From positions 1 through 59,363 of IMG/VR virus record IMGVR_UViG_3300028048_000083: 59,363 nt of DNA; one strand, 5' to 3'. Every line of letters starts with the position of its first letter. Position 1 is the first letter of the stretch. The DNA comes from a virus. Taxonomy: Duplodnaviria; Heunggongvirae; Uroviricota; Caudoviricetes. Positions 40,368 through 55,820 of this stretch are shown here, piece after piece. The notes below the pieces were generated by a model. It did no database searches. It was given only the letters and a program-made list of their open reading frames with translations, and had not been told where the DNA came from. Made by a program: the position numbers and the translations under genes.

Positions 40368-40445
40368 TGCGGGGTGGACTGGAGTTGGTTCCAGCTTGGT
40401 CTCATAAGCCAAATCACGGAGGTTCGAATCCTCCCCCCGCTACCA
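40368..40445 (+). tRNA. tRNA-Met(CAT), possibly initiator-type
   Basis: CTCATAA loop, 1:72 mismatch, encoded CCA; lacks the three consecutive G-C anticodon-stem pairs. Confidence 0.85.
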
Positions 40446-40562
40446 AATCTTTTGACAATTTCAATATTCGCGATAAACAATTGTCGAAAGCACACGTATT
40501 TTAACAAGAATATCCCAGAATGGGAAGGTCTAGGTAATCAATCCTTGCGTGTGTAAAAAATT

Positions 40563-40790
40563 AAAGAAAACAGTAGGTGGGCTTGGAAGTAGCCATCCTT
40601 TAAAGAGTGACAGACTGTAACGGAGGACAAAAATCCTGGTGCAATACAAGCTTTAAAAGCCAGGATTCCTTATCGGCAGCAAGTAAACGTGAAACGTGAC
40701 GTGAAACCTATGATTACTACATTGTAAAATGATAATGCTTACCCATAACTAGTAGGCGGTCTTTGGTGTAACAACACACTGGTTTTCTTT
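40563..40790 (+). ncRNA. 23S rRNA H43-H44 (L11/GTPase-associated centre) mimic with internal insertion
   Basis: GGCTTGGAAGTAGCCATCCTTTAAAGAGTG...GTAACAACACACTGG closed by AAAGAAAAC/GTTTTCTTT. Confidence 0.8.
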
Positions 40791-40796
40791 TTTAAT

Positions 40797-40941
40797 GTAT
40801 CTGTGACGGGGAATTGGTATACCCGCGCTTTAAAAGTAGAGACTTCCGTGAAAGACGGATACACATCGTAAAAATTACGGTGAGGTCGAACGGTCATGTA
40901 AATGATGCCAGTTAATGATGGTTCAAATCCATCCAGGTACG
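40797..40941 (+). tRNA. Leu-type tRNA-like gene with greatly expanded anticodon/variable region
   Basis: GTATCTG/CAGGTAC acceptor, GGAATTGGTATA D loop, canonical T arm; anticodon not assignable. Confidence 0.55.
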
Positions 40942-41012
40942 CCCAAAGGCTGTACTGTTAAGCGATTTAGGTGCCAAAGACAATAAGTGTACTGAAACGG
41001 AGCAAAACAGGG

Positions 41013-41235
41013 TTGTAAACAGTTCGTCTAAAGTCTAAGAAATAATATGAACGCCGCAATAAATATCCTCAAAGAGGGGGAAAGAATAATAGGGTCCCGT
41101 AGACCCGAATTCACGCTTGTGGAGAACCCAACCGTGGACGACCGTCAGGCAGAGCCTGACCTAAGAAGCGGTGGTTCGTTGAAACAAGAAGCGGAAACTT
41201 GGGAATCATAAGATTTCATAGGTTTTTGTGTACGG
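41013..41235 (+). mobile_element. minimal non-autonomous IS607-like element retaining the tnpB 3' end / omegaRNA scaffold
   Basis: 41047-41211 encodes NAAINILKEGERIIGSRRPEFTLVENPTVDDR...LRSGGSLKQE, a typical TnpB C-terminal tail. GG at both inferred junctions. Confidence 0.7.
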
Positions 41236-41359
41236 TTTGTCATGTATTGACCATATAAATCATGACCCTATCATCGGTGGAAACGGTGGTCAAAACCAAG
41301 ATGGAGTACTACATCAGCAAGTGAGGGTTTCGAGTTAACGTTAGTAGCTTGCAAATTTT

Positions 41360-41432
41360 GGGAGCATAGCTCAGCTGGTAGAGCGTCGGACTGTTAATCC
41401 GCAGGTCGTAGGTTCGAACCCTACTGCTCCCG
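41360..41432 (+). tRNA. tRNA-Asn(GTT)
   Basis: Canonical cloverleaf. Confidence 0.95.
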
Positions 41433-41678: not shown

Positions 41679-42578
41679 ATGCTTAATATAGATATTTCAA
41701 CGGAAGAGAAGCGTAAAGAAACTTTTGAACTTTTTGATAAAATGTTATCAAAAGGAGATATTTTTAAATATTATGGAGTTTCGGATAACACAAAAAATAC
41801 AAATGAATTAAATAGAATTGGTGATATAATAGGTTTTGATTTTTCAATTTATAATAGAAGAAAACATCCAGATAGATTTTGTAAATTATGCGGTAAAAAA
41901 CTTAATTATGGCCAAGATTTATTTTGTTCTAAAAGCTGCTCAGCAAAATATAATAATAAACATCACGTTAGAACCGAAGAAAGTAAACGTAAAACATCTA
42001 AAAGTTTGATTAATTATCACAAAAATAATATAGAAAATAGTGATAAAATATTAATTATAACTGAAGATGGTGATGAAAAGATTTTACATGAACACGTTTG
42101 TGAATGTTGTGGTAAGATTTTCCATAGTAAGAAAAAAAACCGAAAATTCTGTTCTAGAAAATGCTCAGTTAAAAATAGAAGTGATAGATATCGAAACAAT
42201 ATAGATGAATACAAAATATATCATATAGCTTGTGATTTTAAATTTTCGCTAAATGATTATCCTAATGAATTCAATTTTCAGTTGATTGAGGAATATGGGT
42301 GGTATAAAGCAAAAAATCATGGCAACAATTTAAATGGAATAAGTAGAGACCATATATTGTCAGTTCGTGATGGGTTTGAGAATAAAATTGACCCTTATTA
42401 TTTATCTCATCCAGCTAATTGTAATCTTATGATACATAATGATAATATATCAAAACATAAACATTCAGATATTACTTTCGAAGAACTTTTAGAGAGAATA
42501 AAAGAATGGGAAAATAAATATGGCATATATGAAAATAAAATTTCATATGTTGGTATAGAAAGTTTTCAAACAAAATAA
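41679..42578 (+). CDS. His-Me (HNH-like) endonuclease with Zn-finger repeats
   Basis: IDISTEEK N-terminal module; CxxC...FCSxxC repeats; SRDH...HPANC..M.HNDN. Confidence 0.75.
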   Translation: MLNIDISTEEKRKETFELFDKMLSKGDIFKYYGVSDNTKNTNELNRIGDIIGFDFSIYNRRKHPDRFCKLCGKKLNYGQDLFCSKSCSAKYNNKHHVRTEESKRKTSKSLINYHKNNIENSDKILIITEDGDEKILHEHVCECCGKIFHSKKKNRKFCSRKCSVKNRSDRYRNNIDEYKIYHIACDFKFSLNDYPNEFNFQLIEEYGWYKAKNHGNNLNGISRDHILSVRDGFENKIDPYYLSHPANCNLMIHNDNISKHKHSDITFEELLERIKEWENKYGIYENKISYVGIESFQTK

Positions 42579-43428: not shown

Positions 43429-43485
43429 CAAGTTTTAGTTCGAAATTTGTTTTTCCGACTATTTATAATTAAATTAAGTTTAATT

Positions 43486-44139
43486 ATGGATAGTATAATA
43501 AAAGAACAAATTTTAAATTGTAAAAGTTATGCAGAAGCGATTCGTATATTGTATGGTAAAAATTATACAAATGGAAAATTGCAAGAAAAAGTTAGACAAG
43601 ATTGTTTAAATAATGGTATCGATTTTCAATCTGTTTTAGAAAAAAATAATACAAAACATTGTTTAAATTGTGGGAAAATTCTTGAATTAAAATCGCAATC
43701 CAAATTCTGTTCATCTTCATGCGCAGCTAAAATCAATAATACAAAACGCAAAAAAGAGAAGTATTGTATTAATTGTGGAACACAGATAGATAATAACCAA
43801 AAATTTTGTTCAAATAAATGTCAATGTGAGTTTAAAGCTAAAGAAATTACAAATCAATGGCTAAATAATGAACATAGTGGATGCGATAAAAATGGTGAAT
43901 TAAGTGAATTCGTTAGAAGGTATGTTTTAGAATTACATGAACATAAATGTGATGTGTGTGGTTTTAATGAAAAAAACCCATTTAGTGGTAATGAAATATT
44001 AGAAATACATCATATTGATGGTGATTGTTTTAATAATAACTTATCAAATTTACAAGTTCTTTGTCCAACACATCACGCAATGACATATAATTATGGTCGT
44101 AGAAATTACAATTGCACTAGAAAACGTTATAAAAAATAG
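43486..44139 (+). CDS. HNH endonuclease with Zn-finger repeats
   Basis: LEIHHIDGD..NN..SNLQVLCPTHHA; ATG at 43486. Confidence 0.9.
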   Translation: MDSIIKEQILNCKSYAEAIRILYGKNYTNGKLQEKVRQDCLNNGIDFQSVLEKNNTKHCLNCGKILELKSQSKFCSSSCAAKINNTKRKKEKYCINCGTQIDNNQKFCSNKCQCEFKAKEITNQWLNNEHSGCDKNGELSEFVRRYVLELHEHKCDVCGFNEKNPFSGNEILEIHHIDGDCFNNNLSNLQVLCPTHHAMTYNYGRRNYNCTRKRYKK

Positions 44140-44787: not shown

Positions 44788-44858
44788 AATGCTTTGGTGT
44801 AACGGCAGCACGTCCGTCGTGGAGACGGAAGGTCTGGGTTCGAATCCCAGTAGTGTTC
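44788..44858 (+). tRNA. His-like tRNA with aberrant anticodon loop (CGTGGAG)
   Basis: D and T arms normal; C73; GTG off-register and no U33. Confidence 0.55.
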
Positions 44859-44860
44859 AA

Positions 44861-45125
44861 AGTGACGGTTGTTGATAGTCATTCGAATGTATGTAAGACT
44901 TCGGTTCGAATCCGAACAGGTCCACGATGTTACCGATATTAAAAAGGGGCATGAAGGTCGCGGTCACCTTAAGACCGTATTTGGGCTTGACTTGGTTTTG
45001 ATTGCATATTAGTAGGGTGGAAGTAGACTGTTACTGAAGTTGTTTAAACGGCAACACAAACTATTCTTATCGCATGGCTGCCTAAGTTGGGCACCCACAG
45101 CGGGGCTGGCAACGAGCCAAATCGT
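44861..45125 (+). ncRNA. ssrA: circularly permuted (two-piece) tmRNA
   Basis: Acceptor piece 44861-44924 (T arm + CAGGTCC-A) precedes coding piece from 44983 (GGGCTTG...GGTTTTGA). G3.U70 present. Tag GNTNYSYRMAA* at 45050-45085. Confidence 0.88.
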
Positions 45126-45334
45126 TGCTTTATTTTGAAAACTTGACAGTCCCCCACACATACATTAAAATTGACAGTGCAGGCTCAGACCGTTTGTGTG
45201 TTATACAGACGTGGCTGACCAATGACCATTGCCTTGTATGACCAGGTGGGAACGATGCGCCAGACTATAGTGGTACATCGTTGAAGCGGGCACACCAGCG
45301 TGGAAGCAAGAGCTTTTCTGGTGTTTTCTTTTTT

Positions 45335-46085: not shown

Positions 46086-46931
46086 ATGAATAGGATTGAT
46101 ATTAGCACGGAAGAAAAAAAACAAGAAGTTTATGATTTATTCAAAAATTTCAAGAATAAGTCACAAATACATGTGTATTATGGAATAAGTGACAATTCGC
46201 AAGGTTGTCAGTATATAAAAGAGGTTGCTGATGAGATTGGTTTTGATTTAAGTTCATATAAAAAGAAAGAAACAAGATATTGTTTGGAGTGTGGTGCTGA
46301 GTTAAAAAAAGGCCAAACCAAGTTTTGTTGCAAATCATGTGCGGTTGCTTATAATAATAGACAGCGTGATAAATCGGTATATGAAAAAGTTGCATCAAAA
46401 TTAAGGAAAAACCAAAAACATAATAAGAAAGAGGATAAATATTGTGTTGTTTGTGGTAAACCGTTAATTGGTAGACAACACAAATTTTGTTCTAAAAGCT
46501 GTAGAAATAAATATTATTATTCAAACAATGGATATGAAGTAGTATGTGTTGAATGCGGTAAAATATTTAAAGCCACTGATTCTGAAAGAAGGTTTTGTTC
46601 AAATTCGTGTTGTACGAAGTATAAACAGGAAAAACTTATAGAGGAATGGTTGAAAGGAAATTTAGAAATAAACGGAAACTCTGGATTATGTGATAGTATA
46701 AGAAAATTCCTTTTTGATAAAACAAAATATAAATGTCAAAAGTGTGGTTTTGAAGGATATAATGAAGTAACTGGTAATACAATATTGCAAATTCATCATA
46801 AAGATGGTGATTGTAATAATAACACACCAGAAAATTTAGAAGTTTTATGTCCAAATTGTCATGCTATGACTGAAAACTATATGGGATTAAATCGTGGAAA
46901 GTCAACAAGAATTAAAAGATATTATAAATAG
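46086..46931 (+). CDS. HNH endonuclease with IDISTEEK module and Zn-finger repeats
   Basis: LQIHHKDGD..NN...NLEVLCPNCHA. Confidence 0.9.
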   Translation: MNRIDISTEEKKQEVYDLFKNFKNKSQIHVYYGISDNSQGCQYIKEVADEIGFDLSSYKKKETRYCLECGAELKKGQTKFCCKSCAVAYNNRQRDKSVYEKVASKLRKNQKHNKKEDKYCVVCGKPLIGRQHKFCSKSCRNKYYYSNNGYEVVCVECGKIFKATDSERRFCSNSCCTKYKQEKLIEEWLKGNLEINGNSGLCDSIRKFLFDKTKYKCQKCGFEGYNEVTGNTILQIHHKDGDCNNNTPENLEVLCPNCHAMTENYMGLNRGKSTRIKRYYK

Positions 46932-47112: not shown

Positions 47113-47249
47113 AGGAGTGTAGTTTAACGGTAGAATGACGGTCTCCGTACAGGGTGGCTCCTGAGAGAGGCTTAAATCAACGAATATTGTTTAGAGATAG
47201 ACAATATTTGACAAAACCGTAGATGTTGGTTCGATTCCAGCCACTCCTG
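47113..47249 (+). tRNA. tRNA-Trp(CCA) with 66-nt insertion in the anticodon
   Basis: ACGGT-CTCC[insert 47147-47212]AAA-ACCGT; G73. Confidence 0.82.
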
Positions 47250-47386: not shown

Positions 47387-47509
47387 TGGGAAGTCGTCTA
47401 GTGGTAGGACGCGGATAAATGGTGACTTTTGGTTATGAAAGTCGGACAGCAATTGATTCTATACATGCTTTGGGTGCCCGTTACGCTGGTTCGAATCCAG
47501 CCTTCCCAG
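47387..47509 (+). tRNA. tRNA-Pro(TGG) with 52-nt insertion at 29/30
   Basis: CGG[47415-47466]GC-TTTGGGT-GCCCG; removal gives a perfect 5-bp stem. Confidence 0.85.
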
Positions 47510-47921: not shown

Positions 47922-48027
47922 GATTCCTTAGCTCAGTGGTTAGAGCGTCGCACGTAAAGGTTAACATGACAGAAGCGTGCGGTAATAGTCGGTTTTAGAG
48001 ACGCTGGTTCGAATCCAGCAGGAATCA
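47922..48027 (+). tRNA. tRNA-like gene with enlarged anticodon loop and variable region, anticodon unassigned
   Basis: Perfect acceptor, D and T arms; TCGCACG/CGTGCGG stem. Confidence 0.6.
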
Positions 48028-50063: not shown

Positions 50064-50191
50064 GGACAGGTAGCTCAGTTGGTTTAGAGCGACGTAATGA
50101 ATGACTTTTGGCGATTGAAAGTCGTACAGCAATTAATAAAATTCTATGGTCACCAACCCGTAGGTCGGAGGTTCGAATCCTTCCCTGCCCT
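50064..50191 (+). tRNA. tRNA-Gly(ACC) with 53-nt insertion at 29/30
   Basis: ACG[50095-50147]GG-TCACCAA-CCCGT; U73; atypical C33. Confidence 0.75.
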
Positions 50192-53166: not shown

Positions 53167-53239
53167 GCGCCCGTGGCTGAGTGACTTAGGCGACCGTCTC
53201 TAAAACGGTACTACACGGGTTTGAATCCTGTCGGGCGCA
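53167..53239 (+). tRNA. amber suppressor tRNA (CTA)
   Basis: ACCGT-CTCTAAA-ACGGT; complete cloverleaf; T loop TTTGAAT. Confidence 0.9.
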
Positions 53240-53462
53240 CAAAGAGGTTGGAGGTTAACATTTACGCCATACCAGCTGTCAGTGCCGTTTGAGCCTAGAG
53301 CAGCGAATTTTTAGGCGAAAATGCAAATGACTTTTGATTAAGCGGTGACGAGCCAAACTGGTCATTAGCCAGATTGCCTCTGGCAAAAGCCAGATGTCCG
53401 TGAAAGTCGGAGGAGAGTCTTCCAGTGTATCGTGTTCTACTCCTTAAACAAGTAACAAGTAC

Positions 53463-53845: not shown

Positions 53846-54652
53846 ATGAAGAAAAATGAAAGAACGGAACAGGAATACAGAGATGCTGCTAAAAATTCAT
53901 TTAGTTTTGCTGGAATGTGTCGCTATTTAGGATTGGGCGCTTTTGGGGCTAATTACAGAAGATTACACAAAGCAATCGATGAATACGGAATTGATGTATC
54001 ACATTTTACAGGTCAAGGTTGGAATGTTGGTATGATTTTTAATCCAATGGATAAAAAAAAGAAGTCTCTTGATGAAATTTTAATTGAAAATTCAGATTAT
54101 GACAACACTAACACATTAAAAAATCGTTTATTCAATGAGGGAGTAAAAGAAGAAAGATGTGAAAAATGTGGACTAACTGAATGGAATGGAGAACCAATAC
54201 CATTACAACTACATCATATTAATGGTAATAGAAGAGATAATAGATTGGAAAATTTACAGATATTATGTCCAAACTGTCATGCACAAACTGACAATTTTTG
54301 TGGGAAAAATGTAGATAAACCTAAACGTAGAAATCTAAATAAAATTGAACGTTATGAAAAAGTAAAAGAAGCATATGGTGAAGAATTTGCTATTAAAACT
54401 TTTGGTATAATTGAACAAAAAAAGAATAAGTCAAAACAGAAAAAAATTTGTCCTGTATGTGGGAAAGAACTTAAAAAAAGTGAATATACGTACTGTTCAC
54501 TTGAATGTTCACATAAGTCAACAAAAAAATTACCTGAAGATAGCATAATTATTAATCACATTAAAAATGGTTTAACCAATCAGGAAATTGGTGACATATA
54601 TGGCGTAACAGAAGCTTGTGTTAGAAAATGGAAGAAAAAACATAATATATGA
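53846..54652 (+). CDS. HNH endonuclease with C-terminal HTH
   Basis: LQLHHINGNRRDNRLENLQILCPNCHA. Confidence 0.92.
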   Translation: MKKNERTEQEYRDAAKNSFSFAGMCRYLGLGAFGANYRRLHKAIDEYGIDVSHFTGQGWNVGMIFNPMDKKKKSLDEILIENSDYDNTNTLKNRLFNEGVKEERCEKCGLTEWNGEPIPLQLHHINGNRRDNRLENLQILCPNCHAQTDNFCGKNVDKPKRRNLNKIERYEKVKEAYGEEFAIKTFGIIEQKKNKSKQKKICPVCGKELKKSEYTYCSLECSHKSTKKLPEDSIIINHIKNGLTNQEIGDIYGVTEACVRKWKKKHNI

Positions 54653-55061: not shown

Positions 55062-55820
55062 ATGAACGAAAAAAGGGAATATATAAGAGAAAATTTGGGT
55101 ATTATAAACAAAATGATAGAAAATAAACGACCTAAATTTGAAATTGCTAGAGTTTTAGGTGTTAAATATGAAACATTAAATAAGTATTTAAAAGAGTTTG
55201 GAATTAAATATGAGGGAAACCCTAACAGAAAAGGTATTCCACATTTAGAAGGTAGAACCTTTATGGAGGAATATTTTAATGGGAATATAAATGTATCAGC
55301 ATCTACGTTACGAAGAAAATTAATAAAAAACGGGTTTAAAGATGAAAGATGTGAGTGTTGCGGATTAACAGAATGGATGGGTAAAAAAATACCATTAGAA
55401 CTGCATCATATTAATGGTAACCATAATGATAACAGATTAGAAAATTTACAAATATTATGTTCTAATTGTCATTCACTGGCACATGAATATAGTAATAGTA
55501 ACAATAAATCAAAAAATGTGGTTAATACAACCCTTTTAGAAAAGTGTTTATCTGGTGACAATAATACCGAAAGGCAAAAGAAAGAAAAAGAAAAAAATAT
55601 ACGATATTGTAAACACTGTGGGAAAAAATTAAAAAGTAACCAAAAAAATTACTGTTCACAAAATTGTGCTCATGCTCATGTTGCTAAAATACCATCCAAA
55701 AATGAATTAGTTAATAAATTAAATGAGTTTAATTGGAATAAAACGAAAACTGGTAAATATTTTGATGTTAGCGGTAACACTGTTAATAAATGGATTAAAA
55801 AATACGATATAATAAAATAA
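55062..55820 (+). CDS. HNH endonuclease with HTH domains
   Basis: LELHHINGNHNDNRLENLQILCSNCHS; paralog of 53846. Confidence 0.92.
   Translation: MNEKREYIRENLGIINKMIENKRPKFEIARVLGVKYETLNKYLKEFGIKYEGNPNRKGIPHLEGRTFMEEYFNGNINVSASTLRRKLIKNGFKDERCECCGLTEWMGKKIPLELHHINGNHNDNRLENLQILCSNCHSLAHEYSNSNNKSKNVVNTTLLEKCLSGDNNTERQKKEKEKNIRYCKHCGKKLKSNQKNYCSQNCAHAHVAKIPSKNELVNKLNEFNWNKTKTGKYFDVSGNTVNKWIKKYDIIK

Follow-up and report, generated by a model that had tools for sequence, protein, structure and literature searches.

Our results show that the tRNA array of a large rumen phage carries a non-coding RNA gene of ~226 nt that reproduces, in split form, the GTPase-associated centre (GAC) of 23S rRNA (E. 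coli positions 1051-1108). The element lies at 40564-40790 on the + strand of the window, as we call the whole stretch of 59,363 nt that was analysed, and it is almost certainly an RNA with the GAC fold. It belongs to an RNA family that is real and well supported and, apparently, undescribed: Rfam 15 has no such family, only a local LSU match appearing, and no description of a phage GAC-like RNA was found in the openly accessible full-text literature. A preliminary description, made from the sequence alone, had proposed a stand-alone look-alike of the GAC with an insert in H44; the sequence that it gave for 40563-40790 is as quoted, and the observation was confirmed, by a local cmscan match to rRNA and by R1, a covariance model of the family.

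The source record covers 123 kb of a large rumen phage, with a completeness estimate of 32%, and a complete relative bearing the same element measures 372,793 bp. The tRNA array spans 39.3-57.3 kb and, according to Rfam and ARAGORN, contains 26 Rfam tRNA matches, a permuted tmRNA gene (44835-45176) and a tRNA with the anticodon CUA, of the amber suppressor type (53167-53240); the element is held in an ORF-poor gap of 914 nt inside this + strand array. Four of the tRNA genes (47113-47249, 47387-47509, 47922-48027 and 50064-50191) show, when ARAGORN is run with introns, anticodon-loop inserts of 16-66 nt, which are too short for group I introns. Among the tRNAs there are also ORFs with HNH endonuclease and zinc-ribbon domains (43447-44139, 46086-46931, 53846-54652 and 55062-55820), and an ORF at 41679-42578 that has no Pfam match and is absent from the syntenic relative L023, as expected of a mobile gene. 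Despite this tRNA-CUA, the idea that the RNA aids amber recoding through a weaker RF1 finds no support, as reading TAG as sense hardly lengthens the frames in the 123-kb record.

At the sequence level the likeness to rRNA is local. A cmscan of 921 nt (40440-41360) aligned 40570-40618 to positions 1093-1148 of LSU_rRNA_bacteria (RF02541), which correspond to H43/H44, with 17.9 bits and an E value of 0.0038; this score does not reach the family's gathering score, 50, which is no surprise for a piece of 50 nt, and neither a match at the gathering score nor a full-length 23S gene was found. Nothing else from Rfam was returned for 40440-41360, and there is no further LSU match across the 123-kb record, in agreement with the earlier statement that no other rRNA sequence flanks the element. 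The 31/40 identity of the 40-mer to E. coli that had been reported is consistent with the E. coli 23S sequence. Compared by eye with the true 23S stretch found in the record of Paenibacillus phage Pd_22F (L007; MZ092003.1, near 83.9 kb), the 40-mer has 7 differences in 40 positions. The stretch in this phage record is continuous true 23S rRNA and not a split element, and could be either host DNA included in the record or a real capture. When compared by blastn with E. coli genomes, in a database too large for a similarity of 40 nt, the element gave no match at E values up to 1. Some core variants had been taken as typical of Bacteroidota, an attribution that is not supported: the exact 30-nt H43 core was found in none of 185,579 species genomes, and GAGUG is a general bacterial consensus, present also in the Pseudomonas phage copies. 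Single-sequence folding gave z = -0.99, and the z-scores are insignificant on both strands.

Table 1. Parts of the element and its upstream neighbour, in window coordinates.
Feature	Positions	Strand	Remark
Upstream tRNA gene, same direction	40368-40445	+	Rfam tRNA 34.5 bits; ARAGORN
Closing helix, 5' strand	40564-40573	+	Pairs with 40779-40789
H43 equivalent including the 1067 loop (23S 1057-1081)	40575-40599	+	From the cmscan LSU alignment
Junction UUUAAAG and H44 base, 5' strand (23S 1082-1090)	40600-40608	+	Sequence UUAAAGAGU
Junction proper	40600-40604	+	
H44 base strand, G-A-G-U	40605-40608	+	
Insert domain, 153 nt, between 23S 1090 and 1091	40609-40761	+	
Hairpin in the insert, 8 bp	40632-40639/40660-40667	+	One compensatory change in L062
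Conserved motif AGUAAACG-UGAAA-CGUGAC in the insert	40682-40700	+	Short irregular hairpin
Linker UUUG, insert to H44 hairpin	40762-40765	+	
H44 hairpin and 3' strand (23S 1091-1104), GU-GUAACA-AC-ACAC	40766-40779	+	
H44 hairpin, GU-GUAACA-AC	40766-40775	+	
H44 3' strand, ACAC	40776-40779	+	
Closing helix, 3' strand	40779-40789	+	R1 match ends at 40790

The closing helix is formed by 10 pairs with one bulged G, and its inner three pairs (C40571, A40572 and G40573 side) correspond to 23S 1053-1055/1104-1106, the end of H42; the earlier claim that the unit is closed by a helix of its own is therefore correct, but the helix is not entirely new. H44 resumes, as had been noticed, about 155 nt downstream, after the insert and its linker. 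The insert is also closed by a helix, the register of which is ambiguous in this copy: AGACUG/CGGUCU had been proposed, and the family consensus register is G40609-C40761, followed by A-U and C-G. The GAC secondary structure, the 1058-1080 pair (here G1058-C1080) and the triple of 1072 with 1092-1099 (here U1072 with U1092-A1099) are all present in the window copy, which has a G at 1067.

The element is shared by many phages. The same split architecture was found in >60 viral contigs, and the cultured carriers are Pseudomonas, Aeromonas, Xanthomonas and Cronobacter phages. When the gap was compared with cultured phages by blastn, it matched two unrelated Pseudomonas phages, UNO-G1W1 and pf16, in both cases in unannotated gaps in tRNA arrays and on the tRNA strand, and the split architecture is also present in Aeromonas 4_4572, Pseudomonas Astolliot, Xanthomonas XacN1 and XaC1, and Cronobacter GAP32. 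The window's own exact 31-mer core had no match in the IMG/VR scan; a degenerate core pattern excluding true rRNA gave 52 IMG/VR loci, and junction-specific patterns led to close relatives of the window copy (L023, L062, L064 and L068). Only 18 matches to a junction-type pattern were obtained in the 185,579 species genomes, all but one of them in MAG contigs; R1 recognises 15 of these 18 as full-length elements, and of the 7 matches that were scanned for tRNAs, 5 carry clusters of the phage type, which reach 24 tRNAs in 4.6 kb.

R1 was built from 14 short members, the window copy being left out, and it matches 40564-40790 (+) over model positions 1-174 of 174, with 79.8 bits and an E value of 9.5e-23. 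Chance is excluded, because a model built from 14 other members matches the window full length, and the window copy has the layout of the family, with the insert between 1090 and 1091, a G-C closure and then a C-UUU-G/A linker. With R1, a single copy was found in each of UNO-G1W1, GAP32 and two relatives of the rumen phage, and no copy in the 540-kb Lak-C1, so the element is dispensable for at least some megaphages. A related phage keeps it: the syntenic L023, which shares the flanking genes at 76-78% identity, has the element in the same place, at 78% identity and with a compensated closing helix. A rumen metagenome contig (L064:2672-3158, -) holds two tandem divergent copies of the GAC mimic, with 78 and 64 bits, the first of them 92% identical to the window copy.

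The substitutions seen in the family are specific to the GAC fold. Among the 33 members aligned with R1, 94% of cells pair, versus 71% in shuffles, and the covariation score is 0.575 versus 0.17 in the shuffled alignments, none of 500 shuffles reaching the observed value and slid controls staying at or below 0.123. Double changes occur in 9 of 9 outer closing-helix pairs of the family alignment, and the closing-helix sequences of L023, L062 and L068 are different yet complementary. The pairs that close the insert show double changes in 4 of 4 cases; across the family the first is GC 44, UA 2 and GU 1, the second AU 24, GC 20, UA 2 and UG 1, and the third GC 16, CG 13 and AU 8 plus wobbles. In a fixed-register table of 47 distinct members, the 1058-1080 pair is GC in 22, AU in 11, UA in 11, CG in 2 and GU in 1, and the 1092-1099 pair is CG in 33, UA in 12 and UG in 2. 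Unpaired position 1072 tracks this last pair, with C accompanying C-G in 33 members and U accompanying U-A in 11 (Fisher 1e-10, phylogeny-uncorrected), and the switch between the C/C-G and U/U-A forms of the triple, of which the window copy has the latter, even separates the close relatives L031 and L045. Contacts C1072/C1092 and C1072-G1099 belong to the tertiary structure of the GAC (PMC2952862), and the covariation of 1072 with 1092-1099 in the family is, as read from the sequences, the known base triple of the GAC (PMC2952862). The covarying positions had been left free in the search patterns, and covariation across phage copies outside rRNA operons, which the preliminary description had put forward as a check, supports the GAC fold.

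Invariant in the 47 members are G1071, G1091, C1100, U1060 and A1088, of which U1060-A1088 is presumably the tertiary pair of the GAC, and the junction stretch UUAAAGAGU is 96-100% conserved; the search patterns themselves fixed positions 1068-1090 and some of both motifs, so that invariance there is partly by construction. In the H44 loop, G1093, U1094 and A1098 are present in 47/47 members and A1095 in 45/47, and A1070 is largely kept. The linker is equally constant (U 47/47, U 47/47, U 46/47, and G 42 or A 5 at its last position). UUUG is complementary to AAAG 1084-1087, and an alternative pairing is predicted; the AAAG/CUUU pairing that RNAalifold gave for six close relatives was discarded, because the wider family supports the rRNA-like structure instead.

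The insert, measured from GAGUG to the hairpin, has 81-303 nt in 40 distinct members and always occupies the same point. It has no Rfam match, 40605-40775 has no LSU match at E values up to 10, and no sarcin-ricin loop of the AGUACGAGAGGAC type was found within 4 mismatches in the 40 inserts. The stem of the AGUAAACG-UGAAA-CGUGAC motif is invariant in the window copy, L064a, L068, L062, L023 and the divergent L064b, and occurs also in L043, while a pair flanking the motif covaries (AU 4, GC 2). With its AGUA...GAC around a hairpin, an extra A and a different loop, the motif only resembles a sarcin-ricin loop. The Pseudomonas/Aeromonas group has another insert motif, GGCA-CCCCG-GNRA-CGG-UAAGG, and across subfamilies the inserts have no common sequence.

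The element is present in RNA libraries. Rumen RNA-library contigs from several studies contain its insert-specific part: one metatranscriptome contig of 206 nt is identical to 40577-40782, others cover 40597-40754 and 40676-40754, and some extend from the 3' part of the element to 41010; such contigs cannot show the ends, the strand or the level of the transcript. Their 5' ends are uninformative on the 5' end of the RNA because they coincide with the start of the similarity to true rRNA, and contigs of true rRNA from the same samples can be aligned to 40571-40613. In four RNA runs 40440-40567 and 41016-41079 are uncovered, a hole that proves nothing, and the pf16 element has 0.40 of its words in one wastewater metatranscriptome run, which is a word share only and no evidence. 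In RNA-library contigs from two studies, 41010 is joined directly to 41234, and the 223 nt thus skipped (41011-41233) comprise a 54-aa ORF (41047-41211); at 41088-41191 lies the sole Lak-phage-like part of the gap, ~78% identical to Lak-C1 and Lak-A1. Candidate explanations for the skipped segment are an intron, a strain indel and a small mobile insert.

The placement among tRNAs holds across the family. A total of 175 tRNAs lie up to 1.5 kb from the 47 elements, every one of them on the strand of the element; for 30 of the 47 the distance to a tRNA does not exceed 150 nt, many elements have tRNAs just 2-10 nt from either end, and in L062, L064 and L068 a tRNA ends 6 nt upstream of the element. 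For the window copy the nearest called tRNA is 119 nt upstream. The element fills a tRNA-like slot in the precursor, from which we infer that it may be excised by the tRNA-processing enzymes. The upstream tRNA gene of the window (40368-40445) has an irregular anticodon loop, to which ARAGORN assigns a 2-nt 'anticodon'. Starting 7 nt 3' of the element, 40797-40941 (+) can be drawn as a tRNA-like fold with an acceptor-like GUAUCUG/CAGGUAC, a D-arm-like CGGG/CCCG, a T-arm GAUGGUUCAAAUCCAUC and ~75 extra nt mid-fold, which was called neither by Rfam nor by ARAGORN with introns allowed (40781-41365). In Xanthomonas phage XacN1 (L006) the element is directly 3' of an annotated 2'-5' RNA ligase gene, and no tRNA occurs within 1.3-1.5 kb of it.

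What could be the role of an imitation of the GAC in the phage cycle? Our preferred reading, which we hold tentatively, is that of a stable non-coding RNA that binds host uL11 and so alters the behaviour of the ribosome and of the stringent response. We rank it first because the 58-nt domain is conserved to its tertiary contacts and because the carriers encode no uL11: the uL11 RNA-binding domain PF00298 is absent from the record and from 4 complete carrier phages, so the uL11 partner would be that of the host. In this model, a stable RNA of ~226 nt would be transcribed together with the phage tRNA array, and the enzymes that trim the neighbouring tRNAs would cut it out. Its two ends would fold as the 23S GAC (end of H42, H43 and H44), the minimal 58-nt uL11 site, with the variable domain of 80-300 nt projecting from H44. 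The free RNA would then bind host uL11, in competition with some 10^4 ribosomes, and the protein would be withdrawn from ribosomes or fail to be delivered to them. Ribosomes short of uL11 would not activate RelA, which would blunt the stringent response to infection or to tRNA damage, and would terminate less well with RF1. We infer the binding from the conserved fold, since uL11 binding needs the tertiary fold of the GAC (PMC6239185). Of the predicted consequences, the first would follow from the requirement of uL11 for RelA activation (PMC13448080 and references therein), and the second from the contact of RF1 domain 1 with the N-terminal domain of uL11 (PMC3677378), by which a shortage of uL11 would weaken RF1 action. 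A1095, kept in almost all members, contacts cofactors and not the fold (PMC6239185), and its conservation is a hint of a partner in place of, or in addition to, uL11.

The main rival explanation, which we think unlikely, is that the free GAC copy is a target decoy that soaks up site-directed attackers and spares the ribosomes that the phage needs; the attackers envisaged are an RNA ADP-ribosyltransferase or nuclease of a host defence or of a competitor, or a thiopeptide antibiotic. The location of the element among phage tRNAs fits this idea, phage tRNA arrays being often read as spare parts against tRNA-directed defences. The literature searched describes no phage defence directed at the GAC, and we are not aware of one. 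Besides, position 1067, where an A is a key thiostrepton contact, is G in 9 of the 47 members, the window copy included. The Tre23 toxin ADP-ribosylates H44 around 1095-1098 and thiopeptides bind H43/H44 (PMC8661411), and the loop of H44 is well conserved, even at A1095, a base that the fold does not require (PMC6239185). Against an enzyme, however, a stoichiometric decoy works poorly, and a decoy would leave the insert unaccounted for.

The ubiquity of the insert, its subfamily motifs and the conservation of the UUUG linker are not accounted for by a simple uL11 sponge either. They would fit a scaffold, in which the GAC fold, perhaps with uL11 as a chaperone, is only a stable handle and the variable insert does the work, for example by binding some further factor of the host or the phage: every one of the 40 distinct members has an insert (81-303 nt) at the same point, motifs are shared within subfamilies (the window group, L064b and L043 have AGUAAACG..CGUGAC, and Pseudomonas/Aeromonas the GNRA-containing one), and the junction linker is invariant. 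We nevertheless consider this scaffold quite unlikely, as the inserts share no sequence across subfamilies and match nothing in Rfam, whereas the GAC part is conserved to its tertiary contacts, which points to the GAC as the common function.

It is improbable that the RNA, as an imitation of the stalk base, binds a translational GTPase or RelA directly and reduces the availability of the factor. The GAC does contact RelA and RF3; to bind on the ribosome, factors require bL12 and the sarcin-ricin loop as well. No sarcin-ricin loop copy was found within 4 mismatches in the 40 inserts, the insert of the window has no LSU match, and position 1067 is variable. Contacts of the GAC with EF-G and EF-Tu are established (PMC8661411), and it would suit such a factor decoy that A1095 and A1070 are largely kept.

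Very improbable is a cis-acting leader, in which an r-protein would regulate a downstream gene through an rRNA-like mRNA leader. There is precedent for rRNA mimicry in mRNA leaders (PMC3616713); here, the neighbours of the element are tRNAs, often only 2-10 nt away at either end, neither an r-protein gene nor a conserved ORF follows it, and no Rfam leader family (e.g. L10_leader) matches. For the first two of these reasons the r-protein autoregulation suggested in the preliminary description is unlikely. The binding of uL10 that it also put forward is unlikely too, as the element has only the 58-nt uL11 domain and a sequence-variable helix, the longer part of H42, which we take to be what uL10 binding needs, being missing.

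A non-functional relic, either a host rRNA fragment captured with an insertion or an assembly chimera of rRNA reads, would agree with a core very like true 23S and with the alignment of true rRNA contigs of the same samples, but is already refuted by the covariation and has a negligible probability: compensatory changes affect all helices and the tertiary triple across unrelated phages, there is one copy per carrier genome (4 searched whole), always on the tRNA strand, the same junctions recur in independent assemblies and in cultured phage genomes, and the exact core is absent from all the species genomes. The preliminary description had argued against a random captured fragment from the clean closure of the helices, and the homologues with compensatory changes, in the syntenic relative and in many unrelated phages, bear it out. 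An assembly chimera is excluded because DNA runs from other studies independently contain the stretch, with 57-85% of its sampled words.

Taken more broadly, we lean towards the view that large phages of many bacterial phyla carry a dedicated uL11/GAC-mimic RNA gene that would reprogram host translation or stress signalling in trans, through uL11 capture or as a decoy. If so, this would be the first natural free-standing mimic of an rRNA domain and a new class of phage counter-host RNA. Should the RNA bind uL11 or a site-directed ligand, phages would manipulate the ribosome with imitation rRNA, in addition to the known means of tRNAs, factors and r-proteins, and phage tRNA arrays would be linked to the control of the stringent response or to ribosome-directed immunity. 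The family would also offer hundreds of natural variants of a classic RNA tertiary fold and a new three-way junction, and testing should be easy in the cultured carriers pf16 and UNO-G1W1 (Pseudomonas), GAP32 (Cronobacter) and XacN1 (Xanthomonas).

How does the element compare with known systems? With the bacterial 23S GAC (H42 end, H43 and H44; the 58-nt uL11/thiostrepton domain) it shares the secondary structure, the near-invariant nucleotides, the 1058-1080 pair and the triple of 1072 with 1092-1099, including the alternative between C/C-G and U/U-A (PMC2952862). However, the GAC is part of a 2.9-kb rRNA, whereas the element is a free-standing gene in a phage tRNA array, in which a short helix of arbitrary sequence replaces H42, H44 is split between 1090 and 1091 by a domain of 80-300 nt and a UUUG/A linker, position 1101 is an A pairing with U1090 instead of the U of the GAC, and 1067 may be G. 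The leaders of r-protein operons (L10, L1) likewise reproduce an r-protein site of rRNA outside the ribosome, although they are cis-acting parts of mRNAs, located upstream of r-protein genes, and copy only local features (PMC3616713). The phage element, in contrast, is probably a discrete RNA between tRNAs, and it reproduces an entire tertiary domain. Phage T4 too encodes small RNAs within its tRNA cluster, on the tRNA strand, namely the stable RNAs C and D (species 1 and 2), which are said to be processed together with the tRNAs; they are not related to the element in sequence or structure, R1 reaching at most 11.3 bits in the T4 tRNA region with filters off, in a match inside segB. The laboratory analogue of the proposed titration of uL11 by a free GAC would be the plasmid-expressed L11-binding rRNA fragments of E. 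coli, a free fragment of this kind reportedly limiting L11 and altering termination (Van Dyke, Xu and Murgola, 2002, J Mol Biol 319:329, cited in PMC13448080). Those fragments are artificial and have no insert, whereas the element described here is a natural gene that carries one.
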